From a virus (lineage: Duplodnaviria; Caudoviricetes), in IMG/VR virus record IMGVR_UViG_3300032038_000028, positions 48,853-112,852 of that record: 64,000 bases of DNA; one strand, written 5' to 3'. The notes beneath the pieces are model-generated. The model saw only the letters and a program-made list of their open reading frames with translations. It did no database searches and had not been told where the DNA came from. Position numbers and translations under genes: made by a program. Below are positions 17,658-37,629 of the stretch, piece by piece (position 1 is the first letter of the stretch; the number at the start of each line of letters is the position of its first letter).

Positions 17658-17671
17658 ATTCATATCTCCTC

Positions 17672-18322
17672 TCACATGATTACGGTTCCAACGGGCTCGG
17701 TGGTGGTGTCTATGTTCCAACCTCTGTCGCTCTGATTGACGCCCATCCAATCGATCTCCTCATCCGCAATGAAAGGCTCTCCACCCGTGCTGGTATCCAG
17801 TAACTTGCTGCCAAACTCCTCCGGCGTCATTTCACACAGCACTTTCCGGCCGAGCTTTGCAATCGCATCCATCGTGGCGTCTTTCGGCACGGACAGGTAC
17901 ATCCGATAGGTGCGAACCAGGCCGAAGTCAATGCAGGCAACGGCGTGCTCTTCCGGTTCCTTTTTCTCTTCGGTGAAGTGCCAGACGGTTTCCGGCAGGG
18001 AGCCGTCTTTGATCTGGACATAGACGCAGACTTCACTGCACATCAGCCTGCACTCAGACACCCAATTCCACACGACGTCCCGGAGCCGGCTCGGGGTCTC
18101 TCTAAAGTCTTCTTCCGTTTCCGAGAACGCCGCTGTGCTTCCGCCGCCGTAGTAGTCTGCGATCCAGCACATGCCGTTGTCAAACATGGCGTCAGGCAGA
18201 CGGCGGATGCCGTAGGAATACTCGCCGTCTTTGGTCGCCGCCAGTCCGATTTCAGATCCGACATCCATCTTGCGCATCCGGTCAACCAGTTCCATCACGG
18301 TAATCATTTCTGTTTTGTACAT
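17672..18322 (-). CDS. hypothetical protein, tandem paralog
   Basis: Colinear with 18337-18978 (YGIRRLPD..DNG.CWIAD.YGGG; ACI.F; PVGTV). Confidence 0.8.
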   Translation of the reverse strand: MYKTEMITVMELVDRMRKMDVGSEIGLAATKDGEYSYGIRRLPDAMFDNGMCWIADYYGGGSTAAFSETEEDFRETPSRLRDVVWNWVSECRLMCSEVCVYVQIKDGSLPETVWHFTEEKKEPEEHAVACIDFGLVRTYRMYLSVPKDATMDAIAKLGRKVLCEMTPEEFGSKLLDTSTGGEPFIADEEIDWMGVNQSDRGWNIDTTTEPVGTVIM

Positions 18323-18336
18323 ATTCATATCTCCCT

Positions 18337-18978
18337 TCACTTTACTACTGTTCCCACGGGCAGTTCCGTTTCGCAGTCTTCAAAGCCTACGAAATCCTGA
18401 TCCACTTCCATCCAGTTAATGTCTTCCATGTCGATAAAGGGATCCCGCCCTTCGCTGTCGTCGGTCACCTTCTGTTCGAATTCGCCGGTCACCATCTGGC
18501 ACAGAGCCTTCTTGGCGGCGTCCTGAATCTCTTCGTCCGTCGCTTCCGGCGGGACGGAGATGTACATATTGAAGGGACGGTTCATCTCGAAGTTGATGCA
18601 GGCCAAGCGATTCTTCTTCGGTTCCACAACCGTCCTCTGAAAATCGTATCGGATTTCCTGCTCGGTTCCGTCTTTGATTGCCACCTGTACGGTTTCACCA
18701 TCATCGCCCATCAGATGTACCATGAACAACCAGGTGAACAACTGGGATTTCAGAGAAACCCCATGCGCTCCGTCCGTGAACACCCTCGCTGCTCCGCCGC
18801 CGTACACATCGGCGATCCAGCAACTGCCATTATCCAGCATGTTGTCCGGCAGGCGGCGGATTCCATACCACTGCTCTTCATCATTCTGCTTTCTTACCAG
18901 ATCGATCGCGGTTCCGATTTCCATTTTGCGCATCCGCTGCTCCAGTTCTTTCGCGGTAATCTTTTCGGTTTTGATCAT
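18337..18978 (-). CDS. hypothetical protein, tandem paralog
   Basis: Colinear with 17672-18322. Confidence 0.8.
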   Translation of the reverse strand: MIKTEKITAKELEQRMRKMEIGTAIDLVRKQNDEEQWYGIRRLPDNMLDNGSCWIADVYGGGAARVFTDGAHGVSLKSQLFTWLFMVHLMGDDGETVQVAIKDGTEQEIRYDFQRTVVEPKKNRLACINFEMNRPFNMYISVPPEATDEEIQDAAKKALCQMVTGEFEQKVTDDSEGRDPFIDMEDINWMEVDQDFVGFEDCETELPVGTVVK

Positions 18979-20402
18979 GTTCATATCTCCTTTCACCACA
19001 GTTCGCTATACCATTCATCCATGATACTCCGGCTCTCAAACCTGCAGCCCTTATAATAGGTAACTTCAACACTAAGTAACCGCCGATCCGCGGAGCGCAG
19101 GCAGAAGGTACACTGGGGAAACTGTTTGCTGATCGTACGCATGATGCTGTGGACATCCAGTTCGCAGAGTCCCTTGGATTCAAAGACCAGCTCTTCTCCC
19201 GGTTCCTTCACCCACACACGGTCGTAGTCCGAGAACAGCGCCGTGTCAAACAGATCCTGATTGTACAGGGCTTGCCAGATTTTGTGGATCAGTGCCGCCG
19301 TGAAGGTACTGGCTCCGCCGTTGTTGTGGATGAACAGCGAGTAGTACTTCATGTTCCTGTCTCCTTTCACACTCTCGGGTTCCATCCGCCGATGAAGGTC
19401 AGCCGCTCCCGGTTATCCTGCTTCGTGGCTTCGTAGAGGAAGTAACCCAGGTTCTGTTTCCGCATGGCTTTCGTGGCGGCCATGGCTTCTTCGTGGGTGT
19501 CCAGCAGGCGGGGCTTGTCGCACAGGGGAATCAGTTTGTAGTAGGTTTTCATAGGACGGCTCCTTTCATTTCCACGCCCAGCTTCCGGGCGATCACACGT
19601 TCCAGCGTTAACTGGATCTCCGCGTCCGTCACAGATTCATGATTCGGCAGTTCCCGCCAGACCGCCATCTGCAAGACGGGCTGGACGTCGTCGTAATGGG
19701 CTTCAAAATGCCGCCCGATTTCCCGATTGATCCGCGTCAGAATTTCATTCCGCTTGTCTTCGCTGGTGGCAGGGGCGAGCTGATCGTCCGGGATCAGCCA
19801 GCTGCATCCGCTCACTGTGTACTGTGCCAGCCCACTTTCCCAGTAGCGGAGCGGGACAGTCATGGTGTACTGGCGATGGCAGTAGTCGATGGTTTGCACG
19901 CCGGCAAGCTTAGCTGCCAGCAACGGGTTAACTTCCGAGACACGCCGCAGGAAATCCGTGGAGATGGTTACCTGATCGCCCTTATGGAACCGGCCGAGGA
20001 TGGCGATTTTGTTTCCGTCCCAGTCCGTTGCGGTTTCAAATACGATGTAGGGTTTCTGATCCTTTTTCATACGCTCACTCCTCCTCCTTGAACGTGCTGT
20101 CGATCTGTTCCGCCGTGAGATTCACATCCCATACGGGTTCATCCCAGTGGGATTCCGGCGACCAGTAGTGGGCTTTCATCTGTACATCTGTCAGATCACA
20201 CTGATCCACTTCCACCAGCATCGGGGCAAAGACATTTCCGTCCGGCCGCTTCAGGCTGATGTACACACCGGGGTAATCACCATTCGGCGAAACGTCCACA
20301 GGTTCCACCAGCAGGGTTCCCAGTGCGGTGTCGATTTCCATCTTGGCTTCCTGTTCGATCACGGTTCCGTCTTTCAGAATGATGCGCATGGTGTATCTCC
20401 TT

Positions 20403-20708
20403 TCAGTCCGTCGTCCGGTAATAGTAGTCGGCTTCTTCGCCGGTTAGGTGTTCCTGTGCATAGGTGTCGGCTTCACCGTACAGTTTGTTGTACATCTCCG
20501 CCATGTTCTGCCTGCCCGAGTTGTACCACTGCCAGAGCTTGTGGTTCAGCACCATGACCAGCTCGGTCAGGTATACACAGTTGTCTTTCCATTCCGCGAA
20601 AGCCCGATCGAAGGTATCCTGCACAGCGGCAGGGCCGAAGCGGTCAGCGATGGAGAAGTCCATCCAGAAGGTGGTCTGCAATTCGTAGTCCGTGTTGGGA
20701 AGATACAT
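20403..20708 (-). CDS. hypothetical protein
   Basis: TTFWMDFSIADRFG...YLTELVMVLNHK.W; GAAAGGAG SD. Confidence 0.75.
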   Translation of the reverse strand: MYLPNTDYELQTTFWMDFSIADRFGPAAVQDTFDRAFAEWKDNCVYLTELVMVLNHKLWQWYNSGRQNMAEMYNKLYGEADTYAQEHLTGEEADYYYRTTD

Positions 20709-20725
20709 GGGGCACGCTCCTTTCA

Positions 20726-20974
20726 TCAATATCCTTCGTAGTATTTTGAGATCACGCTGTGCGGCAGGAATTTGTATCCGCGCTCCGCCAGCGTATCCAT
20801 GATGTAGTTCTCCATGTTGAGCACGGTGAAGTCATCTTCGGCGACTGACTCACGGTACTCTTCTTCGAGGTCGTCCATCAGGTATTCAAAGTCATCATCC
20901 GATTCCGGCGCTTCGATCAGGGCGAAGTCGTCGTCGCCGTAGTCATTGTGCATATGGATCAGCTTGATGCTCAT
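20726..20974 (-). CDS. very acidic small protein
   Basis: Multiple DDD/EEE runs; GAAGGAG SD. Confidence 0.7.
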   Translation of the reverse strand: MSIKLIHMHNDYGDDDFALIEAPESDDDFEYLMDDLEEEYRESVAEDDFTVLNMENYIMDTLAERGYKFLPHSVISKYYEGY

Positions 20975-20977
20975 GAT

Positions 20978-21526
20978 TTACTCTCCTTCCTCTTCCTCAT
21001 CGTCGTCACACATCTCATCTTCGTAAATTCCCCAAAGGTCGGCGGCTGTTTCCCAGAACTCCGGCGTTCCGTATGCGTAGTCGTCGCTGTCTGAACAAAC
21101 CATGTCATCCTCGAACCAGAACACATGCCATTTCGCTCCGCAAGCGATATCTTCATTCATGGCTGTGACATCGATCTGTGCTTTGGTGTTTTCAACCAGC
21201 GCCCACACCGGCGGTTCAGCAAATGACCATGCTGTATCATATCTGATTTCATGGCGCTGATAATTAACGTTGCCATGACAGGCATTCCATTTGGTACCCC
21301 AATGATTGACACTCCAGTCGTACCAGTTAAGCTCGCCCGGATACTTCTCTCTGTCCTCCGCACTCAGCGGCCCGCGGAACACCGTGTCCGGCATCGGGAT
21401 CAGTTTCTGAAAATCCAGAGTCGTATCGCCATCGGGTTCCTTTGTGCAGTACTGATCTACAATGTTCCTGAATTCTTCGTCCGTGACATCTACAAACCTC
21501 AACTTCGTTGCAACCCAGTTCGGCAT
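20978..21526 (-). CDS. YubB/DUF1281 ferredoxin-like domain protein
   Basis: MPNW...LDFQKLIPMP...NWYDWSVNHWGTKWNA...YDTAWS signature. Confidence 0.85.
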   Translation of the reverse strand: MPNWVATKLRFVDVTDEEFRNIVDQYCTKEPDGDTTLDFQKLIPMPDTVFRGPLSAEDREKYPGELNWYDWSVNHWGTKWNACHGNVNYQRHEIRYDTAWSFAEPPVWALVENTKAQIDVTAMNEDIACGAKWHVFWFEDDMVCSDSDDYAYGTPEFWETAADLWGIYEDEMCDDDEEEEGE

Positions 21527-21542
21527 ACTCTTATCTCCTTCC

Positions 21543-22022
21543 TTACAGATGGGCGTCCACGGCGCCGCAGATGTAGTACTTTTTGCCAGGCTCCGCTGCC
21601 CGCATGAAGTCCTGTGCCGTCAGCCAGCCGTCGTCCCATGAGAAAAACATGCTCTCGTCGGTAGCATCATGGGACATGCTGAGCCGGTACAGGCCCGGTA
21701 CACTGTACGCCCTCATATCTTCTTCCGTTGTGGTATTGAGCAAAGCAAGCGCTTTCTTGAATTCCTGCCAGATACCGTGGAAGTAATTGTCGATAGATTC
21801 CTGATCCAGCTGGACGTACCAGCCGTTCTCATCCTGATCCACAACGGCGCGTCCGCCGGTCAGCCAGTCGCTGATCTCCTGCGCCAGCTCTTCGTCGGAA
21901 GTCGAGATGTCCTGCCAGTAATCATAGTGGCCGATGGCATAGGAGTCATCATCCAGCATGTCGGCTGCGATCTTGTCGATGTTGTCCGTGTTTTCTGCGA
22001 TTCCGTAAATTGTGATATGCAT
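21543..22022 (-). CDS. acidic hypothetical protein
   Basis: GAAGGAG SD; ends YYICGAVDAH. Confidence 0.7.
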   Translation of the reverse strand: MHITIYGIAENTDNIDKIAADMLDDDSYAIGHYDYWQDISTSDEELAQEISDWLTGGRAVVDQDENGWYVQLDQESIDNYFHGIWQEFKKALALLNTTTEEDMRAYSVPGLYRLSMSHDATDESMFFSWDDGWLTAQDFMRAAEPGKKYYICGAVDAHL

Positions 22023-22041
22023 ATTCTTATCTCCTTCCATT

Positions 22042-22066
22042 AAAAAAGGAACCGGCTTACGGTTCC
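22042..22066 (-). terminator. intrinsic terminator
   Basis: GGAACC stem around GTAAGCC followed by TTTTTT. Confidence 0.65.
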
Positions 22067-22371
22067 CGTTCGATTGCTTCCAGTTCTCTGAGCGCCCAGC
22101 GGTGGCTGACCTGTTTGGATGCCACCCGGTTGAGCAGGTCGAGGAGCAGTTTGGTCTTGGTTCGGTAATGGATCCTGCCCGGTGATCCGTGACGGTAGCG
22201 GACACGGTACTCGAACATTTCCCGGGCGTAGTCTTCGTTCATGCACCGCTCAGTGGCGATGCGGATTTTCCTGTACACCCGCTCGGCGTCCGGTGGGAGA
22301 TTCTCGCTCCGCTTTACCTTCACCCGGGCGTTTGTGTTCTTCCATCCTTTGCCCATAGGTATCTCCTTCCG

Positions 22372-22713
22372 TTAATCGATCTCAATGGTGAATCCTTCGG
22401 GGTGTATGTAGTCTATCTCCACGTCTGGCCACAGCTCCGACATGCGGTCGATAATGTAGTCGTCTGCACTCAGGCGGTCGCCATCATACAGGAGCTCACA
22501 TGGCGTCTCTCCGTCATCGTTTTCTGTTGTGAATTCCTTTGCGATCTTCTGAAGGTCGTCGATCATGCGCCACCATTCGTCAACCGTGCATCCGTTATAG
22601 GTTACGTTGTACAGGAGCTGGTAGTCTTCACCGGGAGCTCCGACTCCGCAATTGGCGGCGTCCATCCCGTTCCATTTGATTCTCATGATCTGCTTCATCA
22701 TGATCTGCTTCAT
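22372..22713 (-). CDS. acidic hypothetical protein
   Basis: AAAGGAG SD. Confidence 0.65.
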   Translation of the reverse strand: MKQIMMKQIMRIKWNGMDAANCGVGAPGEDYQLLYNVTYNGCTVDEWWRMIDDLQKIAKEFTTENDDGETPCELLYDGDRLSADDYIIDRMSELWPDVEIDYIHPEGFTIEID

Positions 22714-22729
22714 ATTCTCATCTCCTTTC

Positions 22730-23128
22730 TCAGGCGGTGGTCTGTTCCTGCCAGCGGAGCTGCTGCGCTTCCTGAGCTGTTCTCATCTGCACGTTACGGC
22801 GTTTCAGGAAATTCCTGACGGTTGGTTCCGCCACATGAAAGACTGTCGCGATTTTAGGGCAGGACATGCCCTGCTGATACATCTCGAGCACTTCCTTCTC
22901 AAACTGTGGCAGGACGCCGATCCGACTGGTTCGCACAGGCTTCCAGTTCCTAACTGGTTCCGGCTTCCGAGGATCCAGCGCCACGATCTTCGGTTCCATC
23001 TTCGGCTCCGTCGTGTCCGAGCTGGTTTTCAAGGTGATGGTCGCATGCTGTGCGATGGTTTCTTTAATCTCTTCCGCGGTCAGTTCGATCTCCAGTTTCA
23101 TGCCAGCAACGTTCCGAATGATAATCAT
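22730..23128 (-). CDS. C-terminal HTH protein
   Basis: EMYQQGMSCPKIATVFHVAEPTVRNFLKR. Confidence 0.7.
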   Translation of the reverse strand: MIIIRNVAGMKLEIELTAEEIKETIAQHATITLKTSSDTTEPKMEPKIVALDPRKPEPVRNWKPVRTSRIGVLPQFEKEVLEMYQQGMSCPKIATVFHVAEPTVRNFLKRRNVQMRTAQEAQQLRWQEQTTA

Positions 23129-23164
23129 ATTCATGTCTCCTTCCATTATAAAAGACGCCCGATG

Positions 23165-23467
23165 TCAGGCGTCCTCTTTCCAAAGTTCTTTTTTTGCTTG
23201 GTTATATGCGTCCTTGAACAGCATCCTCGGATTCTCCTTGAGTATCTCCATCGCTCTGGCTTTGGTGATCTCGTACCGCCGGTTGGATTCCGCCTGCCGT
23301 TCCTCGGCTTCACGTTTCTCGCGCTTTTCCTTTGCATCTGCGCAGGCCAACCAGATCAGGATGATAATCACGATCACGACGGCGGTTCCTGCCCGGGCGA
23401 AATCCCCGGACGACATGTCGATGAAGAGACAACAGGCAAGAATAGCGATGGCAACTAATCCGAACAT
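23165..23467 (-). CDS. two-TM membrane protein
   Basis: Two hydrophobic N-terminal segments and a charged tail. Confidence 0.65.
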   Translation of the reverse strand: MFGLVAIAILACCLFIDMSSGDFARAGTAVVIVIIILIWLACADAKEKREKREAEERQAESNRRYEITKARAMEILKENPRMLFKDAYNQAKKELWKEDA

Positions 23468-23485
23468 TGCATCTCCCCTTTCCGA

Positions 23486-24172
23486 TTAACGCAGGATTTC
23501 CAGGATATCGAACTCGGTGTCCTTCCGGTAGCAACGCTTGCAGGTGGCACAACTGATTCCGGCACAGTTGGATTTCACGCCGTGGGCCAGCAGCCATTCC
23601 TTCGTGTAGACGGTGAAGCGGTGATCCACATATGGGAGAGCCCACGGTGGAATCGCGTCCGGCATGTTGATCCGCAGGCTGGAGAAGACGAGCGTCATGT
23701 TTTCCGGCTTGCCTTCCTGCTTCAGAGCTTCCACCCAGAGATCCAGATTCTTCGTCCAGACCCCGAACCGGCAGTCCGGATTGGCCTTGATGATCCTGAT
23801 GTAGTTGACTGCCTGCAGGACACTGGCGACATCGCCGAAGCTCTCCACCCGGGTCAGCTTGTCAGGATTGATCCTTAATGCTTTCGGAGTCCACTTGACC
23901 TTGGGCGCCGTTTCGATTTCCGTTGCGTTCAGTGTAGCAAAATTCTGTCCGGTTGTCAACTTAAGTCCGGGGCGGATCTTCTGCAGGGCACAGCTGAAGC
24001 AGTGAGCGCACACCGCTTCGCCGTTCAGCATCCGTGCAACGCACCGGGGATTCATCAGACAGCAGGTGGAGAAGGACGGGAGCCCGGCCATTTTGGATTT
24101 GCAATCGTGTTCCGTCTGGATGAGCTCCGCTGTGGTTCCGTTCGCCATGGTCATCGCAAGTCTGTACGCCAT
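23486..24172 (-). CDS. Gp88-like Cys-rich (radical-SAM-like fold) phage protein
   Basis: SKM...SFST; C..C motifs; RVESFGDV; FGVWTKN; C-terminal CATCKRCY. Confidence 0.65.
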   Translation of the reverse strand: MAYRLAMTMANGTTAELIQTEHDCKSKMAGLPSFSTCCLMNPRCVARMLNGEAVCAHCFSCALQKIRPGLKLTTGQNFATLNATEIETAPKVKWTPKALRINPDKLTRVESFGDVASVLQAVNYIRIIKANPDCRFGVWTKNLDLWVEALKQEGKPENMTLVFSSLRINMPDAIPPWALPYVDHRFTVYTKEWLLAHGVKSNCAGISCATCKRCYRKDTEFDILEILR

Positions 24173-24216
24173 ATGATACCTTCCTTTCGTAGACAGTTGT
24201 CTACCTTTTGTGCATT

Positions 24217-24238
24217 AAAAAAGAACCGTTTACGGTTC
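24217..24238 (-). terminator. intrinsic terminator
   Basis: GAACCGT-AA-ACGGTTC followed by TTTTTT. Confidence 0.65.
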
Positions 24239-26667
24239 CTGTTTGAGCCACGCTTCGATGGCGGATTGCGAATCGAACGTCATCGACTCGCCGGTCTCGG
24301 TGTTCTTGAAGAGGTAGGCCGTTTGCCGATGTCGTCCGACTGGCCGGGCCCGGAAGACCAGAACCCAGCCGCGCTTCAGCATTCGCTTTTCCAGGCGGAG
24401 CAGATGCTCCGGGTATTTATTGATTTCCATGGCTGTTCTCCTTCCGTCAGAAGCTCCGCGCCAGTGTTCCGTCCGGGTTGGTCAGGTAGCAGTACAGCCC
24501 ATCCCGCAGGTTGTACCCGGCGACCTGAATGATGTGGTCTTCGTGGATCCGCACCACGTTGATTCCCTTGACTCCCTTCAGCACGCCGCGATTCACGGCC
24601 GGGATCTGATTCCGCTTGGCGTAGATGCGCTTCGGGGGCTTGCTCAGTCCGGTGATGCCGGGCTTAAAGAGCTCGATCGCAATCATTTGGATTCTCCTTC
24701 CCACCACGGTTTCTCTTTCCGTCCACGCCAGCATCCATGTGCCGGGCACCAGTCACAGCGCTCGTCATGCCCTTCATCAGCGGCATCCCAGTGGCAGAGC
24801 GTGCAGAGCATCGTCTTCCGTCCACAGGTGGGGCAGGTGACGGCATAGGTTTCCATGTCGTCGTCATCAATTACAATTGGGATATCGGTATCGCATTCCG
24901 GGCAGTACTCTCCGAAGTCGTAACCGGTTTCCTGTTCCGTTTTAACGTGGGTCATACGACGCTCCCTTCCGCCGTGAACGAGATCGTAACTTCCCCGCTC
25001 AGATCCGGCATGTCATAGAACAGACTGTTGGTTCCGCTGACCACTGCTCTGGTGTGGTTCTCGTTTACAGACATTCCGGTACGGAGCCACATGGCGTGGG
25101 TCAAAGCTTCAAACGCGTTCCGGGTGGCAGATGCAAAAGCTTCCTGTCCGCCGCCGATGTCTTCGACGACGTACTGCTCCACCATGGGGGAGTAAACATG
25201 GTCGCCGTTTTCAAAGTGCAGGACGGATCCCACCTGACCAAGGTCGCGCCGAATTCGGATTCCGGTTGTGGCGCCGTTGTCAACCATGAGTACCATTACA
25301 GCTCACCTTCTTCCAGCTCGAGCCCGTTCTTCTGCAGGATGGCGTTCACCAGCATGGGCAGATTCTGATCCACCATGCGCTCGGCTTCCTGTTCCGCTTT
25401 GGCAGACTTGCGGGCGACTTCCTTCAGGAGAAGCTTGGTGCCGCTGAAGGCAACGAAACCTTCCATCATGACGCCGTTGCCGCAGGAGCGTCGTTCCACC
25501 GGGACGACCGTCAGATAGTAGCCGCGCCGCTCGTTCTTGTAGGTGAACAGGTTCATGCCGCCAAGGCTGTAGGACATATCCACTTTCAGGTGGGTTGTGG
25601 TTCCGGCGTTGGGTTTCACTTTCAGATAACGTTTCATGGTTTACTCTCCTTCCATTTCTGCGTCCGCTCTGGCGATGATGTCTTCCAGATAGTAGCCGAC
25701 CAGCTCCCCGAACAGAGTGCCGGCGGGTTCTGATTCCTGTGCAAGATTGATGATCGTATGGGCGGTGACTTCGGGAATGTGAGTCCACGTTTCATCGACC
25801 GCCTTGGCGATCGCGTTCATAAAGCAGTAGCACCAGTCGGGATTGCTCAGGCGGGATTTCATGTCGGGCATAGTTTATTCTCCTTCCTTCACGGGCTTCT
25901 TGCTGATGATGACGGTTGCGACGTCCTCGAGCCAGCCTTCCATCACATCGAAGGTGCCGTCCGCTACATTTTGCTCGATGGCCTTGATGGCGGCGTCGTC
26001 GGTGCGTGCCCGGTGGCACATCCGATTAACCCAAGTTTCGCGCCGTTCCACTTCATATTCGTACATCGGTTCTTCTTCCACTTCATACTGGTCGATTATG
26101 CCGTACTTGTCATAGATGTACAGTCCGCCTTTATCGCAATCAATGCGGATGTCGGTAATGGTTACCTTTCCGGTGGCACTGATTACGTAACGCTGAGCAC
26201 TCAGGATGTGAAAATTTGCGCGCCGTTTCCCAGACATCACCCAGCTGTGCATAACTTTGAGATCTTCTATGTCCGACCAAAGGACCGGCTTTCCGCCGTA
26301 GGTCACAACGAGAACATATTTGATGTCGCTTTCCATTATTACTTCTCCTTCCGTCAATGGTCGAATTCCGGGAACCATCCTTCCCAGACAACGTTTTTGC
26401 AGATGTCTCCGAAGCGGAAGTGCTCGCCCGGTTCCCATCCGAAGTACCAGACGCGCTCTCCGTGCCAGTAGATCTCGGTGACGTCATCGTTCGTGCAGTC
26501 ATCGAAGGCAATGATTTTGGAAACGTCGGTGAAAAACCGATCCGCTGAGACGTTGCTCGAGTATCCGTGAACGGTGACGATCCGCTCATCGGAGTCCGCG
26601 GTATCATGTTCCACTGCAAACAGGTTCAGCTTGGCGCCGATGCTTCTCATGTTGGGTTCTCCTTCCG

Positions 26668-26859
26668 TCAGTAGATCCACAGGGCTTGCTCGAAGGTCTG
26701 CCCGTCCACTGTGACGTTAATGAGCCAGTCACCTTCCGCCGGGCGAACGTATTCGTTGAGCCAGATTTCGGCGTCCGCTACGACGTGATGGATGCCGCTG
26801 CGGAATCCGATGAACCATGCCAGTGCGGCGACCAGCAGGACGGCGATCAGTTTTTTCAT
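26668..26859 (-). CDS. small membrane-anchored protein, paralog of 30175-30339
   Basis: Signal-like N-terminus; G..H....A..W...DG pattern. Confidence 0.65.
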   Translation of the reverse strand: MKKLIAVLLVAALAWFIGFRSGIHHVVADAEIWLNEYVRPAEGDWLINVTVDGQTFEQALWIY

Positions 26860-27227
26860 GCGTCATTCTCCTTCCATTCCAGCTTGTACACCCGGTGGGC
26901 GGTCGCTTCGGTGTCTACGATCCAGTACCGGCGAATGATTTTCGTTTCCCGATCCGGCGACACACTGGTCAACTGGGTCGGCAGGTAGCCGGCGTAGGTA
27001 TAGCCGTACTCGGTGCGCTCCGTTCCGCCGAGATTCCGGAAGAACGGGATGGCGTCGAAGATGTTGTGGTAGAATTCGTAGGAGATTTTGCGCACCGTTT
27101 CTGAGTCCGGCTTGGTCTTCCAGCTCTTGCCGGAAGTCGTGCGGGAGAAGCGCTGTTCCTTTTCCACTATGACGGCGTTCTCCAAATAGCTGCGGTTCAT
27201 GCGAATGTTGCGGGTGGGATCAGACAT
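26856..27227 (-). CDS. hypothetical protein downstream of hammerhead 1
   Basis: AGAAAGGAAGG SD; PFFRNLGGTE...YTYAGY. Confidence 0.75.
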   Translation of the reverse strand: MSDPTRNIRMNRSYLENAVIVEKEQRFSRTTSGKSWKTKPDSETVRKISYEFYHNIFDAIPFFRNLGGTERTEYGYTYAGYLPTQLTSVSPDRETKIIRRYWIVDTEATAHRVYKLEWKENDA

Positions 27228-27267
27228 AATTTACCTTCCTTTCTGGCTCCGTTGAGCCTGTACAATG

Positions 27268-27329
27268 TAGCCTGTCTCGTCAGTAACGGGCGGCCATTCC
27301 CGTCAGACCGCCCGAAGGCGGTTTCGACA
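27268..27329 (-). ncRNA. type II hammerhead ribozyme (HH1)
   Basis: GUC-GAAA-CCGCC(UUCG)GGCGG-UC^-UGACGGG(AAUGGCCG)CCCGUUA-CUGACGA-GAC; loop UGGCC can pair with 3' GGCUA. Confidence 0.93.
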
Positions 27330-27358
27330 ATTCGATTTCCTTTCCGGTTCCGTTTACC

Positions 27359-27751
27359 TTATGCGGTCTGCTCGGCGGCTTCGGCAGCCTTCTTCGCTTC
27401 CCGTTCCGCCCACCACCGTTCCGAGGCGATACGTTCCTGCTCGCGCCGCTCGGCATTCTCGTTCAAAATCTTTTCCTGTTCCGCGGGAGACACTTCGCCG
27501 ACCAGCTTGTACACGTACAGCGTGTAGGCATCCTTGCCATTCTGCTGTTCCTCGTCCCACTCGTAACGGCGGGACGCCTTAATAATCTTATCGGGGGCCT
27601 TTTGGCCTGGTTTATACTGGTAACGTTTTATCAATTCGGGTTCCAGCGCGTAGTCGTCGAAGCTCTTGACGTGGCTCTGTTCGCACTCATAGCAGAGATC
27701 GTAGTCTTCGTAGGTCTGGCCGCAGTGGTCGCACACATACAGATTTTTCAT
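27359..27751 (-). CDS. zinc-finger hypothetical protein
   Basis: YVCDHCG...C..CE..H. Confidence 0.75.
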   Translation of the reverse strand: MKNLYVCDHCGQTYEDYDLCYECEQSHVKSFDDYALEPELIKRYQYKPGQKAPDKIIKASRRYEWDEEQQNGKDAYTLYVYKLVGEVSPAEQEKILNENAERREQERIASERWWAEREAKKAAEAAEQTA

Positions 27752-28101
27752 TTTGATTTCCTTTCTGGTTCCGATGAACCTTAGTCCAGATCGTCCAATG
27801 TGAGAATGCCCATAGCCCAGAAGAGCTTCCAGAAGGTTTCCGAATTGGTTCTGATTCCGTTGGGCAGATGGATGTCGCAAACGGTGCTCCGCTGACGGTG
27901 CGAGCAATATTTGCTGTTCCGCGTGGTATATAGGGGTGTGATCTGATTCCCCTTGACGTAGGCGTAAAGCATGATTCGATTTCCTTTCCGGTTCCGTTGA
28001 ACCTTTTGGGATCGTTTCGGGTTCCGTTTACCTATGTGTATAATATGCAAGATTGTGTGTATAATTATGCATTTTGGAATCGATTCGGGTTCCGTTGAAC
28101 C

Positions 28102-28443
28102 TTATGCAAGCTGTTCAGCTGCTTCCCGTTTCGCCCAAACGTGGTCTTGTGCATCGTAAACCTTGTTCCGCTGGTGCCACTTCAGGCGGTTGTCTCCGGC
28201 GTCCAGATCCACTGTGTAGGATCCGTCGTTGAAATCCACGAGCCGTCCGCCGACGAAATCGCCAGCGTCAGCCCAGACCTGATTCCCGTTCCGCATATAG
28301 AACTTAATGACTTCATCGCCGGATATGATGGTTACGTCCACCTTGACGACGTCTTCGATCTTGACGCAATCCAGATAATGACGGTCGTTCCGATAATCCA
28401 TTACGCATGCCAGTCCGTTGTGCTTTCCTTTGTAGGTGCTCAT
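28102..28443 (-). CDS. hypothetical protein
   Basis: AGAAAGGAG SD preceded by the hairpin motif. Confidence 0.75.
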   Translation of the reverse strand: MSTYKGKHNGLACVMDYRNDRHYLDCVKIEDVVKVDVTIISGDEVIKFYMRNGNQVWADAGDFVGGRLVDFNDGSYTVDLDAGDNRLKWHQRNKVYDAQDHVWAKREAAEQLA

Positions 28444-28476
28444 GATCCTATCTCCTTTCTGGTTCCGTTGAACCTA

Positions 28477-28707
28477 TCAGAAAACCCGCATGTAAGGCTG
28501 TTCCGGTTCCGAGAGCTGAAGGTAGCAAGCAAGCTGACGCTTGACATAGAAATTCTCTTCCTCGTTGATCTTACCAACGATGAAGAGAATCAATTCCGAT
28601 TCCAGTATATGCCCCTGCTTCCATTGGGCGATCTTCTCACGGATTTCTGCCTCTGCCAGAGCAAAGCGGGCGTTAGCATTCCGTTCCATCGTTTCTGTAA
28701 TCTTCAT
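28477..28707 (-). CDS. hypothetical protein downstream of hammerhead 2
   Basis: AGAAAGGAG SD preceded by the hairpin motif. Confidence 0.7.
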   Translation of the reverse strand: MKITETMERNANARFALAEAEIREKIAQWKQGHILESELILFIVGKINEEENFYVKRQLACYLQLSEPEQPYMRVF

Positions 28708-28752
28708 TGTTATCTCCTTTCTGGTTCTGTTATGAACCTGTGCATAAAAATA

Positions 28753-28813
28753 CAGCCTGTCTCATCAGTAGCGGTAGGCTGGTTCCGCCAGACCGCCCGA
28801 AGGCGGTTTCGAC
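28753..28813 (-). ncRNA. type II hammerhead ribozyme (HH2)
   Basis: GUC-GAAA-CCGCC(UUCG)GGCGG-UC^-UGGCGG(AACCAGCCUA)CCGCUA-CUGAUGA-GAC; loop CAGCCU pairs with 3' AGGCUG. Confidence 0.95.
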
Positions 28814-29353
28814 TTCCATCAGCGGCGAGCGTCCCAATCGAAAAGGTAGCTGGTTCCGGTGGCCACTGCGACAAATTTGATGTGTCCGTCATTCGGAGCG
28901 TCGAAATGGACGAAGCTTTCCGCTTCCGCATAGGTCATTTCTTTTGTGGTGCTGGTTCCGTTCCAAGTCATGATCGTTACATTGCACTTTAAGTTTGCCA
29001 TAGTGATACCTTCCTTTCTGTCGTTGAGTTATGAAAACCGGTTTCGATTCCGGTTCCGCTCTTAATAAAAACGCCGTCCAGAGCGGGCGGCGAGCTTGCG
29101 AATGTTCCGTTTGAATTGTTTTGCCTGCCAGCGTTCGGCGCGTTCCTGCTGGATTCTGTCTCCGTCGAAGACGGCGTGCAGGAAATGCTGTTCCTTCACA
29201 AACTCGATGATGCAGGCTATCAGGTAGGCCAAGCAGAGGAGGGCAAAGGGGATAGCTGCAATGAGCCAGTTGGGCGGGAGCATAAGCATTTTCCTTTCTG
29301 ATTCCGATATGGATTCTGGTTCCATCATCGCCTCTTGCGGCGATTTTTGGCAT

Positions 29354-29376
29354 AAAAAAACCGCCCGAAGGCGGTT
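29354..29376 (-). terminator. intrinsic terminator
   Basis: AACCGCC-TTCG-GGCGGTT followed by a T run. Confidence 0.8.
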
Positions 29377-29392
29377 GGGTGCGGAAGCTGGG

Positions 29393-30124
29393 TTATTCGT
29401 AACAGTTGAAATACTCGAAATACAGGGTTACATACTGGTCATGCCGCTCGACGCGCACGCCGTCGGGGTGAATCGGCTCCTGAGCTGGAGCATCGTTAGA
29501 CAGTACATCGTCAAAGCAGTCGCCCAAGTCGATGTCAGCAGACTCGGCTATGATGTTGATCTCCAAGATTTCGACGCCGTAATAGGCACGGGTCGTGTCA
29601 GTGGCTTTGTAGTGCTTTGCAACGACGTCATGGCGTTCGCTGACCTCGGGCTTGCCCATGGCCAAATTCATCACCTGCTGCCACTTGGCGGCAAACGACA
29701 CTTCGTCAGGGAAATCGCCTTCAACAGGCGTCACGTTGTCGATGGTACAGTTGAATTCTTCGTTGATATGCCTGCACAGACAGTCGATCTGTGTCAGCCT
29801 GCTTTCGACAGGTCTGGTCTTCGGTGGTAACTGCTCAGCGTCGTCAGTCTGCCGCCCTTTGTGCTTGAGCACATCGGCCCAACTGTCGATCACTGCCTGC
29901 GGAGCGCCCGCCATTTGCAGGGCACCAAGTTTCAGGTACACCTCAGATGCGGGCGTTGTCTTAAAATCATCTCCTTCAAAATATCGTTGTGCGGCGTCAG
30001 GATCGCGCCACAGGTTGTAAAAGTGATAAGGGTCTTCATTGAACATTTTTCGGAACTCTTCTTTTTGCTCATCAGTCAGCTCAGAAGGGTCAAGGTCGTC
30101 AAGATATAGCATGCAGGTTATCAC
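29393..30124 (-). CDS. acidic hypothetical protein with its own promoter and terminator
   Basis: 243 aa, GTG start, GAAGGGAG SD. Confidence 0.75.
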   Translation of the reverse strand: MITCMLYLDDLDPSELTDEQKEEFRKMFNEDPYHFYNLWRDPDAAQRYFEGDDFKTTPASEVYLKLGALQMAGAPQAVIDSWADVLKHKGRQTDDAEQLPPKTRPVESRLTQIDCLCRHINEEFNCTIDNVTPVEGDFPDEVSFAAKWQQVMNLAMGKPEVSERHDVVAKHYKATDTTRAYYGVEILEINIIAESADIDLGDCFDDVLSNDAPAQEPIHPDGVRVERHDQYVTLYFEYFNCYE

Positions 30125-30139
30125 GCTCCCTTCGCTCAG

Positions 30140-30168
30140 AGTATAAACGTTGTGACATGCGCTGTCAA
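30140..30168 (-). promoter_or_regulatory. sigmaA promoter
   Basis: TTGACA-17 nt-TATACT. Confidence 0.8.
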
Positions 30169-30174
30169 GCGCGG

Positions 30175-30339
30175 TTACCTGTACTCATGCACCTCCCCAT
30201 CAAAGTCGATCAGGAACGCGTCACCTTCGGCCCATACTTGGGCAGTGGCGGCGGCATGGCGTACACCTTGGGCGTAGGCGTTGTGAGCGATAACGGCGGC
30301 CAAGGCAAGCAGGGCAATGATCTTAAACAGTTTACGCAT
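30175..30339 (-). CDS. small membrane-anchored protein
   Basis: MRKLFKIIALLALAAVIA...; similar to 26668-26859. Confidence 0.6.
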   Translation of the reverse strand: MRKLFKIIALLALAAVIAHNAYAQGVRHAAATAQVWAEGDAFLIDFDGEVHEYR

Positions 30340-30443
30340 AAGGAAACCCCTTTCGCCCATAGCGTCTTCATGCGGACGCAAGCGGGCATATAAGCCGGGT
30401 ATCAGGCCCCCGGCAGGCCGCAGGTATGGGAAGCGCGGGGAGC

Positions 30444-31286
30444 TTACTTCTCTTCGCGCCAGATCACGTCGTAGGCAACGCCGGACACTACATGGGAGAG
30501 GACGACGAACATCAGGTGCATGGTCTTCTCGGGCGTGCGGATGTGGGGCTTGCCAGTTTTGTCGTCAAGCCAGAACATGTACTGCATGAAGAAGCGGGCG
30601 TCTTCACGGCGGATGCGGTAACGGTTCTGCCCGTCGTCGCGCCCGGTCGTGTCGAACAGGATATTGTCGACGATCGTCTGCAGGCGCCTCATGATCTGGT
30701 TGATGGTCAGCTCTTCTGTCCATGCGTTCTTCTCGTTTTCGGTCATGTCACATACGTCGATCGGCTGACCGTCGTCAGTGTAGACGAGCATGTCCCCGGT
30801 CATGGCGAACGCATCGCGGAACTTCTGCATGTCGCACTTCAGGAGCTTGCACTCTGCCGCCGCCGCATACAGACGGGCGCGGTAGGTGCGGGAAGACCAT
30901 TTCTGGTCGTGCATCAGGTCGCCGAGGTTAAGGTCGCTGTAGGTGCTTTCCAGAAGCTTCAGCCGGTAGGGCTCAGTGTCTTCGGTCTCGATCTCGACGT
31001 TCTTGATGCGGTCGGTGCCACTTTCCTTGGTGATCTTTCTGGTCGCGAGGCCAGAGAAGGAAAACGCTTTCGCGGCGGTTGCAACGACGTCTTCGCCGGC
31101 ACAGATCGTCTCGTAGGCGTTCGTGCGGACCTTCTTGTTGTAATCGGCCAGAGCTTCACGCAGTTTCTTCTCGGCCGCATCAATGGCGACTTTGGTCACG
31201 GCGGGAGTGTTGGCAACCGTCTTGTAAGCGGTAGCGGCGGACTTGCAGTTGTTCATAGCGACGTTCAGTTCTTCAGCTGTGTACAT
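30444..31286 (-). CDS. hypothetical protein, first gene of the left arm
   Basis: 280 aa, GGAGG SD. Confidence 0.8.
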   Translation of the reverse strand: MYTAEELNVAMNNCKSAATAYKTVANTPAVTKVAIDAAEKKLREALADYNKKVRTNAYETICAGEDVVATAAKAFSFSGLATRKITKESGTDRIKNVEIETEDTEPYRLKLLESTYSDLNLGDLMHDQKWSSRTYRARLYAAAAECKLLKCDMQKFRDAFAMTGDMLVYTDDGQPIDVCDMTENEKNAWTEELTINQIMRRLQTIVDNILFDTTGRDDGQNRYRIRREDARFFMQYMFWLDDKTGKPHIRTPEKTMHLMFVVLSHVVSGVAYDVIWREEK

Positions 31287-32394
31287 AGTGTACCTCCATG
31301 GCGCCAGTGGCGCAGTTTTTTAGCTCGGGCCGTCATCATTGCAGGCGGCGCGAACAGGGAGGCCCGGCCGATCGAAATCAGCAGGGCCTGAGGAAGTACT
31401 ATATGCGCACGGCCGAAGCCGAGAATTTCGCATGGTTTAACACTTATGCCAGTTACTATGCGTATCGCCCACAAGCCGCTCCCAGATACTAAGAGCCAGT
31501 AACAGACAGGAGAGATGACAAACCTGCCCCATCGCGGACGATTCGCCAGTGCGCTGACACTTGGCGAGTAACGGCAACTTCGGTATGGTGCCACTACCAG
31601 ATTGTACCCCCGTACTACACGAGCAGTCTGTACAGGTAGGCTGACCGCTTCACAGCGGACCACAGACGACCCCGCGCAAAAAATGCGACAGTTTCCCGTC
31701 TGCGATGCTCATGCCGCCCAGCCGCTATGCGACCGCGCGACACGAGCGCGAAACCCGCGCCGCGACCGCCGCGCCAACCGCGACCGCCGCGCGCTTTATT
31801 ATCGCGCTCACAATGGACGGGAACGAGACCGAGAAAAAGTATGAACAAACTGTGAACAAATTATGAACGAGAAAAAGAGTGAAAACGCGACCGCGACCGC
31901 CGCGCGGATACGCTGACGGTTGGAAAAGTAACACTTTCGTAACATGATTTTTGATTTTTGATCAGAAAAGCGGGGAAATACTCACGCATAAAAAAAAGCC
32001 CGTCTTAAAATCGAGATGAAAATGCCTGTGAAATGAGGCGTTTTAACATATGAACAGGCGCTCAGACTTAAAATCGACCAGATACGACAAAAAGAGCGAA
32101 AAAACGCCGAAAAACAGGCATTTTCCGGGCTATTTTTGATCAGGAAACGCCATTTTCCCCGCCGTCAGAGGAAAAACGGTATAAATGTTACAAAAATGTA
32201 ATAATTATATACAGAAAATGGATAAAAATACATATAAAACGGCAGTTTATACATTGATATACATTGAAATTGTATAAAAAAATCTCAAAAAAATAGAGAA
32301 AATCGTCTGATCAGGCAGGAGAATTTCACTTTTTGTCGAATATGTATAGTGTAATTCAATACACCACACCACTACATGAAGGAGGAAACACACC

Positions 32395-34030: not shown

Positions 34031-34972
34031 ATGAGCGAACTGGCTTACAGGCATCAGGAGAGCAACATCTACACGGAGACCGAAGGCAACCTTACCAGGA
34101 TCTTCTTCGGCCAGAGCGAAGCGATGGGCGAGAACAGAGCACCGTCAGGTGCGGGATTTTTCGGCCAGAGCGAAGCGATGGACACTGCCGCGCCCGATCT
34201 CTATCAGGCCGCTACGACCGACGATCACCTGACGCCCCGCCAGAAGGAGCTCGCCAAACCCGACAGCCGTGACATGGCTGTCGTCCCCCTGGAGAGCTAC
34301 GATCAGGTGCGCAGCCTGATCGACTGGTTCGAGAGCAAACAGGATTACCGCGACGCCTGCCTGCTGACCTTCGGGTTCTGCACCGGCCTGCGGATCTCCG
34401 ACCTGCTGAACCTGAAGATCAGCGACATCGTGGAGAGCATCAAGCCCATGGTCTTCAAGCGGGCTATCGACATCCGCGAGCAGAAGACCGGCAAGCGCAC
34501 GGTCGGCCACCTTGACGACATGCTGATCACCCAGGCGATGCAGGAAGCCTTCAGCCGCTACATGGACAGGAAGCCCTACCCAGAGCTCGAGCCTGACCGT
34601 TATCTGTTCACGTCCATGTATACGCATGGCAACAAACCGATGAGCATCAGGGCGATCCAGAAAGTGCTGACTCCCGCCTTCGCAGCAGTCTGCCCCCACC
34701 TTCACTGCTCCACCCATACGATGCGCAAGACCTTCGTCTCGATCATTCACACCTTTGCGACCCAGGCCACGATGACCGGCGCCGGGATCAACCCCGCTAC
34801 CGCCTGCCAGATCGCCCTGCGTCACGCGAACGCCGCTACGACGATGGCGTACATGGGCACGATGAAGTCCGGGATGCTGTCCCTGCGCCAGGCCGTAAGT
34901 GATTTCGTGATGGGCAGGACCAAGATTCGCAGCCTGAAGACGCAGTATTCGTGGGAGCTCGTGGACGACTGA
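34031..34972 (+). CDS. tyrosine recombinase/integrase family protein
   Basis: TGLRISD (R), EQKTGK (K), THTMRKTF (HxxR), LRHANAATTMAY (H, Y). Confidence 0.93.
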   Translation: MSELAYRHQESNIYTETEGNLTRIFFGQSEAMGENRAPSGAGFFGQSEAMDTAAPDLYQAATTDDHLTPRQKELAKPDSRDMAVVPLESYDQVRSLIDWFESKQDYRDACLLTFGFCTGLRISDLLNLKISDIVESIKPMVFKRAIDIREQKTGKRTVGHLDDMLITQAMQEAFSRYMDRKPYPELEPDRYLFTSMYTHGNKPMSIRAIQKVLTPAFAAVCPHLHCSTHTMRKTFVSIIHTFATQATMTGAGINPATACQIALRHANAATTMAYMGTMKSGMLSLRQAVSDFVMGRTKIRSLKTQYSWELVDD

Positions 34973-36431: not shown

Positions 36432-36803
36432 ATGGAGATTCTGAACACTGTAACTGGGAGCCCCGCCGGTACCGGAACGCTGATGGCATTGCTCATCGTT
36501 CTCATGGCACTGGCAGCGGCTGCGCTCGGTTATCTGATCTATCAGCTTTTCGATGCCATCAGAGATCGCGATCTCGACGGCGGTCTTGCAGCGCTGGTGG
36601 TTTTTAGCGGTGCGCTCTGTCTGCTCATGATCGTCTTCGGCTGGCGCGGGGTAGATAGGCTGCACAACGCCCGCGAGACCATCGTCTACGCCACCATCGA
36701 CGACAGCACCCCGTGGTCAGAGATCAACGAGCGCTACGAGCTGATCAGGCAGGACGGGAAGATCTATCAGCTGAGGCTGAGGGAGGAAGTCGGCCATGAG
36801 TAA
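36432..36803 (+). CDS. two-TM membrane protein
   Basis: Two hydrophobic helices and a soluble C-terminus. Confidence 0.7.
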   Translation: MEILNTVTGSPAGTGTLMALLIVLMALAAAALGYLIYQLFDAIRDRDLDGGLAALVVFSGALCLLMIVFGWRGVDRLHNARETIVYATIDDSTPWSEINERYELIRQDGKIYQLRLREEVGHE

Positions 36804-37629
36804 AGCACTGAGCGTGACGACGTTTGACAACAAGATGTTTGGTACCGTGCGCGGCGGAGAGATCAACGGGAAGCCGTGGTTTGTTGGCAGCGATCTTGCT
36901 GTGTCACTTGGGTACAAGAAACCTGCCAACGCGCTCCGCATGCATGTTCCAGAGAAGCATAAACGTCTGATGCGGCTGGATGATTCAGAGGGTTCTACCC
37001 TAAATCGGGGAGGAACTCCCAGCATGGGCGGCAACCCACACCACACTATCATCGACGAAGCCGGGATGTACCGGCTGATTTTCCACAGCAGGCTCAAGGC
37101 CGCTGACGACTTTGTCGAATGGGTCACGGCCGATGTCCTGCCGACACTGCGCAAGACCGGCACCTACTCGACCGGGGCCAGGCTGATAGCTCCTGATGTA
37201 CAGGCCCTGATGGATGGAAAGACGGACGACGAGATCCGGGTGGCGATGCAGCAGTACAACAACCGGGTAGCCGGAAACGCCAAACGCAAAGCAACCAACG
37301 CGGCAAAGCGGGCCGCCGAACACCTGAGTGATGATCAGATTGTAGTGGCCATCGCCCGGGCGATCAGCTCGAAGCTGTATGGCGGGCGTTTCGGCGAAGG
37401 GACGCTGGCAATGTATGACGTGATCGAGAGCCGGTGCCGGATCCCGCTGCGTGACAGGCAGAGGATGTGGCAGCTGGGGCGCGGCGTCGGAACGCCGTCG
37501 GGGAAGCGGAGCCTGTACTCCTTCATCCTGCCAGAAGAAATCCCGGGCGTGCTGCAGGCACTGACAGCGTACTGCTCGGAGAACGGTGCGGATATCAGCG
37601 GGATTGTCAGCAAGCGGAAGCCGCAGTGA
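36796..37629 (+). CDS. BRO-N domain (antirepressor-like) protein
   Basis: FDNKMFGTVR...PWFVGSDLAVSLGY...IIDEAGMYRLIF.S...FVEWVTADVLPTLRKTGTY. Confidence 0.92.
   Translation: MSKALSVTTFDNKMFGTVRGGEINGKPWFVGSDLAVSLGYKKPANALRMHVPEKHKRLMRLDDSEGSTLNRGGTPSMGGNPHHTIIDEAGMYRLIFHSRLKAADDFVEWVTADVLPTLRKTGTYSTGARLIAPDVQALMDGKTDDEIRVAMQQYNNRVAGNAKRKATNAAKRAAEHLSDDQIVVAIARAISSKLYGGRFGEGTLAMYDVIESRCRIPLRDRQRMWQLGRGVGTPSGKRSLYSFILPEEIPGVLQALTAYCSENGADISGIVSKRKPQ

Follow-up and report, generated by a model that had tools for sequence, protein, structure and literature searches.

A repeated hairpin-SD unit among small early genes

The window examined here, 64,000 nucleotides corresponding to bases 48853-112852 of the 112,852-bp IMG/VR virus record IMGVR_UViG_3300032038_000028 (complete according to CheckV), carries its genes on the minus strand from 1 to 30.2 kb and on the plus strand from 30.5 kb on. 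Within the minus arm, between 26856 and 29283, lies an array of seven consecutive small orphan genes, g73, g60, g76, g113, g63, g130 and g123, to which neither PHROGs nor Pfam gives a function; between 27236 and 28741 the same strand carries eight copies of a hairpin, 14-16 nt long and usually of the form GGUUC-AACG-GAACC (Table 1). The hairpin is part of a compact unit: a stop codon, 0-2 nt, the 5-bp hairpin, 1 nt, an extended Shine-Dalgarno (SD) sequence GAAAGGA, 7-9 nt, and ATG. Read 5' to 3' on the minus strand, g73 is followed by a decayed unit, g60, a hammerhead ribozyme (hammerhead 2), a unit, g76, a unit and g113; then come a unit without SD, an AT-rich direct repeat, a degenerate copy, a unit, g63, a unit and g130; and finally a degenerate copy with intact SD but no gene, hammerhead 1, a unit whose stem is GGCTC/GAGCC, and g123. 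The AT-rich repeat, TGCATA(A)TTATACACA in two copies at 28035-28071 (minus strand), thus stands between two hairpin copies; a variant of it (GCATAATGTATAAATATACAT...ATATGCAAA) precedes a unit in L014, a related contig described below, and it may be an internal promoter or operator.

All the hairpin copies listed in a preliminary description of this DNA proved to lie on the minus strand where it had placed them. As it had also said, five abut the SD of a gene (g76, g113, g63, g130 and g123) and several begin at the upstream stop codon, three directly at TAA and one 2 nt after TGA. A 14-mer search allowing up to 3 mismatches gave 16 matches, compared with 5.6 +/- 2.3 in shuffled sequence, and none of 100 shuffles reached 16; all matches with 0-2 mismatches fall within 1.3 kb and on a single strand. 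When a covariance model was made from these copies, exactly eight significant matches came out of the whole 112.8-kb genome, at 28-42 bits. The adjacency of the hairpin to the (A/G)GAAAGGA sequence is as first described, but that sequence is not special to it: GAAAGGAG is the SD that the phage uses generally, with 25 occurrences on the minus strand of the genome. Genome-wide, a perfect hairpin of at least 5 bp ends 0-3 nt upstream of 12 of 228 SD-like sites, against 4.65 expected, and five of the 12 are those of the array. Two hairpins unrelated in sequence, GTAGAC-AACT-GTCTAC (24189-24204, minus) and GAACGGT-GTAATG-ACCGTTC (580-599, plus, of the related contig L013), stand 0-1 nt before an SD of GAAAGGAAGGTA type; their SD-abutting geometry is the same as that in the array.

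Terminators at 22067-22047 and 24240-24221 have GGAACCG/CGGTTCC stems, in line with the earlier remark that the GAACC stem is found in terminators. A terminator scan called none of the eight units, which have a 5-bp stem and no U tract, and a scan of 21500-31500 gave no sigma-70 promoter-like site in any unit, its sole strong site being at 30168-30140.

Table 1. Features of the window and variants of the array in metagenomic runs. SD, Shine-Dalgarno sequence.
Feature	Position	Strand	Evidence or detail
Decayed unit before g73	29284-29326	-	GGAACCAGAATCC...GGAATCA, then SD GAAAGGA; match 29312-29291, 12.9 bits, E 0.95
g73	29283-29062	-	re-called by SD
Decayed unit before g60	29002-29061	-	GGAACCGGAATCGAAACCGGTT hairpin, relic CTCAACGACA, SD GAAAGGAAGG; match 29032-29011, 12.6 bits, E 1.2
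g60	29001-28819	-	re-called by SD
Hammerhead ribozyme type II, copy 2, between g60 and g76 unit (candidate)	28751-28814	-	33.9 bits, E 3e-4, below gathering score 37
Unit before g76	28708-28741	-	hairpin GGTTC-ATAACA-GAACC 28738-28723, 1 nt, SD GAAAGGA, ATG at 28707; 28.4 bits
g76	28707-28477	-	re-called by SD
Unit before g113	28444-28477	-	TGA-TA, hairpin GGTTC-AACG-GAACC (exact GGTTCAACGGAACC) 28474-28461, SD, ATG at 28443; 40.5 bits
g113	28443-28102	-	re-called by SD
Unit without SD or gene	28079-28104	-	TAA of g113, hairpin (exact GGTTCAACGGAACC) 28101-28088, then CGAATCGATTCCAAAA; 33.1 bits
Degenerate copy, no gene after	28011-28036	-	GGTAAACGGAACC 28033-28020, predicted not to fold; 28.7 bits
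Unit before g63	27973-28006	-	hairpin (exact GGTTCAACGGAACC) 28003-27990, SD GGAAAGGAAATCGAAT, ATG at 27972; 42 bits
g63	27972-27781	-	re-called by SD
Unit before g130	27752-27783	-	TAA of g63, hairpin GGTTC-ATCG-GAACC 27780-27767, SD, ATG at 27751; 37.7 bits
g130	27751-27359	-	re-called by SD
Degenerate copy, SD intact, no gene	27330-27362	-	GGTAAACGGAACC 27359-27346, SD GGAAAGGAAATCGAAT; hammerhead 1 directly after; 37.9 bits
Hammerhead ribozyme type II, copy 1, between degenerate unit and g123 unit (candidate)	27266-27329	-	RF02276, 49 bits, gathering score 37
Unit before g123	27228-27261	-	compensatory hairpin GGCTC-AACG-GAGCC 27258-27245, SD GAAAGGAAGGTAAATT, ATG at 27227; 39.7 bits
g123	27227-26856	-	re-called by SD
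Run X1: g63 missing	27773 to 28001		both ends within hairpins, inside loops
Run X3: g63 missing	27782 to 28016		
Run X3: g123 replaced	26859 to 27230		by 609 other bases
Run X3: g130 tail and its unit replaced	27328 to 27382		
Run X5: g113 missing	28104 to 28448		
Run X5: g76 and hammerhead 2 missing	28462/28468 to 28814/28754		
Sigma-70-type promoter	30140-30168	-	TTGACA-17-TATACT, 11/12 positions match; head of leftward operon
Intrinsic terminator	29359-29376	-	terminator scan; after first gene of operon, upstream of array
HTH (helix-turn-helix) proteins	13496-14107		
ParB-like protein	10021-11163	-	end of minus arm
Erf-like single-strand annealing protein, candidate recombinase for short-repeat exchange	9209-9934	-	phrog_155, E 3.8e-28
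Exonuclease, likely partner of annealing protein	8051-8803	-	phrog_1218, E 7e-19
Primase-helicase	6092-8041	-	end of minus arm
DnaE-type polymerase	2722-5949	-	end of minus arm
YonO-like single-chain DNA-dependent RNA polymerase	48487-51042	+	851 aa; Pfam RdRP PF05183, 52.7 bits; phrog_8308

A place just upstream of each gene would also suit a promoter, and the N4 virion RNA polymerase uses hairpin promoters of 5-7 bp. Each unit could then serve an RNA polymerase of the phage's own, of N4 type or like the YonO-like enzyme encoded here, and make every gene its own transcription unit. The array, however, sits behind a near-consensus sigma-70 promoter, transcription beginning behind the hairpin would give an RNA with next to no leader ahead of the SD, and loop length varies. 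N4 hairpin promoters have a 3-nt loop and are recognised by a giant virion polymerase; the loops here have 4-6 nt (3 nt in one variant), and the polymerase found, in a search that covered the record beyond its first 48 kb, is YonO-like. The gene for this enzyme is on the other arm, where the terminase and portal genes are, and YonO itself reads the late genes of SPbeta from one start, as a single operon (PMC5467207). We regard this explanation as a remote one.

Relatives differ by whole cassettes joined at the units

A metagenome scan produced two related contigs, L013 and L014. In L013, g63 and its following unit lead into a 165-codon gene absent from the window; in L014, g130 comes before g63, reversing the order of the window, and the genes on both flanks are different. 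Window, L013 and L014 are identical through the end of g63, its TAA, the hairpin and GAAAGGA, and unrelated beyond. Likewise the block consisting of unit, hammerhead 1 and unit is near-identical in the window and L014, the switch on its upstream side falling in the 5' arm of a hairpin and that on its downstream side at an ATG. The gene found only in L013 (111-605, plus) looks methyltransferase-like by eye, has no Pfam match, and contains GGAACC five times in about 500 nt.

Logan contigs of four bovine-gut runs, each from a different study, were placed on 26500-29500. They add deletions and replacements of single genes or short blocks (runs X1, X3 and X5 in Table 1), and 10 of the 14 breakpoints lie no more than 5 nt from a unit, although units make up 9.7% of the stretch (binomial P = 5e-8). 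Two of the remaining four, 28814 and 28754, lie at the ends of hammerhead 2; a third, 27382, lies at the edge of a 3' coding tail common to g130 and g113; and at the fourth, 26859, the gene that follows g123 has its start codon. The common tail (W-A-E/K-R-E-A ... A-E-Q-x-A-stop; 27356-27412 and 28099-28137, minus strand) is shared in addition to the hairpin that follows it, so that the shared junction sequence extends about 45 nt into the upstream gene. The variation is cassette-wise, with the units as its joints: whole single genes are missing, replaced or reordered in relatives. Gene content thus does vary between copies, as the preliminary description had suggested checking, and what L013, L014 and the four runs support is the last and least stressed of its ideas, that recombination uses the repeat as a handle to swap single-gene cassettes.

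The joints fall at differing points of the unit, some in the loop or the 5' arm of the hairpin, others behind CGGAACC, behind GAAAGGA or at the ATG. Homologous exchange or slippage fits this better than a site-specific cut, which bears on the proposal that the hairpin is a recombination site folded in single-stranded DNA, a miniature of attC, acted on by one of the three tyrosine recombinases of the phage. The region does have the outline of an integron: single-gene cassettes that lack promoters of their own and all point the same way behind a shared one, each bounded by a foldable inverted repeat, and a divergent tyrosine recombinase gene (34031-34972, plus; the others are at 16243-16686, plus, and 41624-42151, minus, of the full genome) about 5 kb from the array and kept in L014, besides the X1 joint inside the loops of two hairpins. 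But all three recombinases are of the generic Xer/phage-integrase type and far below the cut-off of the integron-integrase model TIGR02249 (265), on which the one near the array scores 25.4 bits; it is not IntI, and we reject an integron as such. attC sites measure about 57-141 nt and have paired R/L boxes and extrahelical bases, whereas the hairpin here is a perfect structure of 14-16 nt with no extrahelical bases, and the joints keep to no fixed point. Nor does the phage genome encode a serine recombinase or a Y1 (IS200/IS605-like) transposase (PF01797). An attC-like site is, on this evidence, very unlikely. REP elements, whose RAYT partner would carry PF01797, were ruled out by the absence of that domain from the whole genome.

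Searches beyond these contigs returned the following. The exact hairpin-SD pattern has no match in IMG/VR, and with a free loop it has five single matches there, at chance level and none in an array. The shared SD-spacer sequence GAAAGGAAGGTAAATTATG occurs at 26 IMG/VR loci, none of which has the hairpin or is related to the phage by blastn, and the region had no blastn match among 50,697 phage records. A genome search gave no g130 relative, and in 185,579 species genomes the hairpin-SD pattern appeared only at two single sites in Pseudomonas, which we take as chance; neither a prophage relative nor a host was found. Single-protein searches of IMG/VR returned nothing for g130 and, for g123, one distant locus without hairpins. 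Eight g130 protein clusters were found. A fragment 98% identical to the phage (L011), found via its DNA polymerase, stops short of the array.

The hairpin as a transcribed structure

Aligning 14 copies of the hairpin, eight from the window and six from relatives, showed that 84% of cells pair. A two-sided change is seen at one pair only (U-A to C-G), in two orthologous rows, which makes it a single event. The array had been called covarying: the compensatory change is real, but for a single event that is an overstatement. The stem is retained while the loop varies between AACG, AUCG, AUAACA and AAG (3, 4 or 6 nt), the first loop base being A in all copies that fold. In one relative the copy GGUUU-AAG-GAACC pairs through a G.U that exists on the sense strand only. 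Copies that precede a gene have a perfect stem, and two of the three without a gene are degenerate; no gene comes directly after either of the two copies whose stem is gone (GGTAAACGGAACC). In native context the predicted probability of the stem is 0.78-0.99, and the SD is predicted to be 0.61-0.89 unpaired.

Single orientation, fixed distance to the SD, a stem kept while the loop changes, and one compensatory and one G.U change together make a role at the RNA level plausible, as originally proposed; a folding test of SD exposure, to which we return below, showed no gain. The same features bear on a reading of the 14-bp palindrome as a double-stranded operator for a dimeric regulator, silencing or partitioning the region as a stoperator or centromere would. 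Its 5-4-5 inverted-repeat symmetry would suit such a protein, the phage encodes HTH proteins and a ParB-like protein (Table 1), and the stoperators of L5 are likewise found in short gaps between genes, all oriented alike (cited in PMC3203893). Against it, a spacer that varies between 3, 4 and 6 bp would turn the half-sites; the symmetric double change GGCTC/GAGCC affects both of them and still leaves pairing intact; the G.U variant pairs on the sense strand only; and the constant 1 nt between hairpin and SD speaks for an element of the transcript. We consider an operator most improbable.

Predicted hammerhead ribozymes at two of the junctions

Two junctions carry what are, from their sequences, credible type II hammerhead ribozymes. 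Copy 1 exceeds the gathering score of its family; copy 2 falls below it, is 83% identical to copy 1, and has its CUGAUGA, GAAAC and GUC core intact. A pseudoknot between loop I and the 3' tail, read from the sequence, is possible in both (UGGCC/GGCUA in copy 1, CAGCC/GGCUG in copy 2), one pair having changed on both sides between the copies with pairing preserved. Each putative ribozyme, with predicted cleavage after GUC near 27305 and 28790, has a hairpin-SD unit 8-12 nt downstream, and the pair encloses four genes, g76-g130; no ribozyme accompanies the other six of the eight units. Cleavage at the hairpin would be redundant at the two junctions that already have a hammerhead, which makes the processing site once suggested for it less likely and favours a role as leader.

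The 17-nt hairpin ACCGCCCGAAGGCGGTT (plus strand) of the terminator at 29359-29376 is exactly stem III of both hammerheads (27307-27323 and 28792-28808), and the U-rich tail of that terminator resembles the tail after hammerhead 2.

A strand-specific word shared by hairpin and early genes

In composition, nothing sets the early genes apart from all others more strongly than the word (A)CGGAAC(C), which the loop and 3' arm of the hairpin make up. GGAACC occurs 32 times in early and 9 in other genes, CGGAAC 41 and 15, and ACGGAA 28 and 8, a 6-8 fold excess per nt. The strand-specific enrichment of GGAACC that the preliminary description had proposed to test for is clear: 48 minus-strand against 11 plus-strand occurrences in the window, and 24 against 0 for CGGAACC. 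The word is present in all three reading frames (12/14/15), lies about 2-fold above a synonymous-codon shuffle (z 5-6), is dense also in the gene found only in L013, and on the minus strand from 11000 to 30200 climbs in density toward the head of the operon, while being absent from the other arm. GGTTC, the word of the 5' arm, shows no enrichment. Preferred codons, GGA and GAA, account for part of the enrichment, and the 8-mer ACGGAACC inside genes, read by eye, always encodes N-G-T or D-G-T; the 6-mer enrichment is not explained in that way.

These counts raise a further, unlikely possibility, that the hairpin is just the palindromic and most visible form of a strand-specific word, which would imply a reader acting in trans. 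On early mRNA the reader could be an RNA-binding factor of phage or host, or an antisense RNA; on DNA the word could be a polar, Chi-like signal for recombination or protection, GGTTCCG on the plus strand. A Chi-like word, if real, would also explain why exchange concentrates at the hairpins.

Enrichment of ACGGAAC across early mRNAs could also reflect the reader required by another proposal, in which the hairpin itself is bound by a phage or host RNA-binding protein, be it as a translational operator, a boxB/nut-like site or the target of an endoribonuclease, co-regulating or processing all the cistrons of the array. A 5-bp stem with a 4-nt loop resembles boxB or a Cas6f/Csy4 substrate, the copies have one orientation and stand 1 nt from the SD, and the first loop base is constant in folding copies. 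Yet beyond that base the loop varies in sequence and length, and a copy stands at every gene boundary, whereas boxB has a conserved loop bound by an N-type protein and one site per operon near the promoter; with eight copies at gene boundaries, the boxB/nut-like antiterminator first suggested does not fit. Cleavage would, as noted, be redundant at two junctions, and PHROGs and Pfam recognise no RNA-binding protein among the neighbouring genes, though no search was aimed at an N-like protein. We think a protein-binding site unlikely.

A proposed junction module and the evidence against it

The reading we prefer, with a probability of roughly 60%, is that the repeat is a start-associated junction module, acting as a recombination handle in DNA and probably also as a leader in mRNA. 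At the DNA level, the 25-45 nt of sequence shared per unit would serve as homology patches through which cassettes are deleted, inserted or reordered, and an incoming gene would end up behind a ready-made ribosome site. Exchange could be the work of the phage's own Erf-like annealing protein together with its exonuclease, or could come about as replication slips at the palindromes. Red-type or Erf-type pairs of annealing protein and exonuclease can recombine over short, imperfect homology. The two genes in question are adjacent here (8051-9934, minus), as in a Red-like recombination module. At the RNA level, where the case is weaker, the transcribed hairpin would be a standard structured leader directly 5' of the SD of each cistron, perhaps blocking 5'-to-3' decay or uncoupling the cistron from its upstream neighbour, and at two junctions it would cooperate with a hammerhead cutting the polycistronic RNA just upstream.

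Several results weigh against this proposal. The hairpin is weak, at -3.3 to -5.7 kcal/mol, and the evidence from covariation comes down to the one event. In an insulator folding test, in which 27 upstream contexts were combined with 5 cassettes to give 135 swapped combinations, the hairpin brought no gain in predicted SD accessibility over its absence (0.707 vs 0.698, P = 0.43), and beat only a scrambled 14-mer. Four distant homologues of g130 (L015-L018, about 30% identity) have no hairpin before the SD, so that the module is young or lineage-specific. Breakpoints in phage mosaics are in any case expected at gene boundaries by selection, and since boundary and unit coincide here we can only infer homology-driven exchange; aligners, moreover, tend to end matches inside shared repeats.

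Some of these points would suit repeats without a function of their own, flanks carried along with duplicated or copied cassettes and kept alike by gene conversion. The array occupies only about 2 kb, more distant relatives do not have it, copies at 28033 and 27359 are degenerate and those at 29032 and 29312 decayed, and the folding test gave no insulation effect. Mere passengers would not, however, be expected to keep a perfect stem where they precede a gene and to degenerate in two of three cases where they do not, or to show one compensatory and one G.U change; unrelated hairpins stand at the same distance from the SD at 24204-24189 and in L013; and analogous modules recur in unrelated phages (PMC2839356, PMC3203893). 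We therefore hold functionless repeats to be decidedly unlikely and keep to the junction module.

Genome setting and probable host

The leftward arm has a near-consensus promoter at its head, followed by about 60 small genes, mostly orphans, and then by replication and recombination genes (Table 1). On the plus arm, an Ant-type anti-repressor is encoded at 36796-37629. The closest counterparts of the DnaE-type polymerase, with 40-45% identity, come from Clostridioides, Thomasclavelia and Bacillus phages, and the runs that contain the stretch are bovine-gut metagenomes from 13 studies, among which those flagged as RNA cover only a small share of it. The host is thus probably a member of the Bacillota living in the cattle gut.

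Comparison with known systems

Two systems in unrelated phages behave much as this array does. The promoter-early stem-loops (PeSLs) of T4-type phages (Arbiol et al. 2010, PMC2839356; Comeau et al. 2014, PMC4122927) are likewise short repeated stem-loop modules flanking variable early orphan genes, at which relatives differ by insertion, deletion or replacement of single genes. Crossovers map in or beside the stem-loop, and the PeSL study, too, argues for recombination across short homology (PMC2839356); the mechanism proposed for both systems is the phage's own recombination acting on less than 50 bp. A further mark of PeSLs is the mini-circle, a circular excision product of recombination between neighbouring units. 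PeSLs, however, have a consensus sigma-70 promoter, whereas the array units have none, and their stem-loop is stable, G/C-rich and terminating, in contrast to the weak 5-bp stem fused to an SD and lacking a U tract that is found here. Host (here Bacillota), phage lineage and sequences are also unrelated.

The second system comprises the start-associated sequences (SAS) and extended SAS (ESAS) of cluster K mycobacteriophages (Pope et al. 2011, PMC3203893), repeats with an SD core just upstream of starts and often containing the upstream stop. They too have a single orientation and precede unrelated gene families, all non-structural, and in ESAS an inverted repeat lies immediately upstream of the SAS. 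SAS elements stand 3-8 nt upstream of start codons and the role proposed for them is translational (PMC3203893). They differ from the array in that the SAS is a 13-bp sequence, GGGATAGGAGCCC, to which ours is unrelated, our SD being the ordinary one of the phage; in that ESAS have imperfect 17-bp arms with a 4-13 bp spacer and extend over half the genome, where the array has 5-bp arms and covers about 2 kb; and in that cassette shuffling at SAS sites is not the point of that paper (PMC3203893). The array thus shares the behaviour of PeSLs and of SAS/ESAS, and fails their defining sequence features: promoter, terminator-grade stem and consensus.

The two hammerhead junctions have counterparts of their own. 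Type II hammerheads in prophages, for which a pseudoknot between loop I and the 3' tail is described, likewise occur several to an operon and flank variable single genes or short blocks, but no accompanying hairpin-SD repeat is described (Perreault et al. 2011, PMC3088659). The order hammerhead, short spacer, hairpin, ribosome-binding site (RBS) and gene is that of RiboJ, in which the sTRSV hammerhead and a 23-nt hairpin precede the RBS (PMC6206723); here the putative hammerhead is a natural one of type II, the hairpin has 14-16 nt, and the folding test gave no RBS-exposing effect.

If our reading is right, the design principle is that of PeSLs and SAS/ESAS, with orphan early genes as plug-in cassettes and a standard leader that doubles as homology patch. 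What distinguishes the array is the very small size of its module, a 14-nt hairpin plus SD, its want of a promoter, and its combination with probable self-cleaving hammerheads; and several independent metagenomes catch the shuffling in progress. The uses may be modest: the unit could serve in Bacillota as a compact natural part between cistrons, and it could help to locate, in phage genomes, accessory genes of fast turnover, likely to be concerned with host takeover or anti-defence. The junction of ribozyme, hairpin and SD would then be a natural counterpart of the insulators of synthetic biology.

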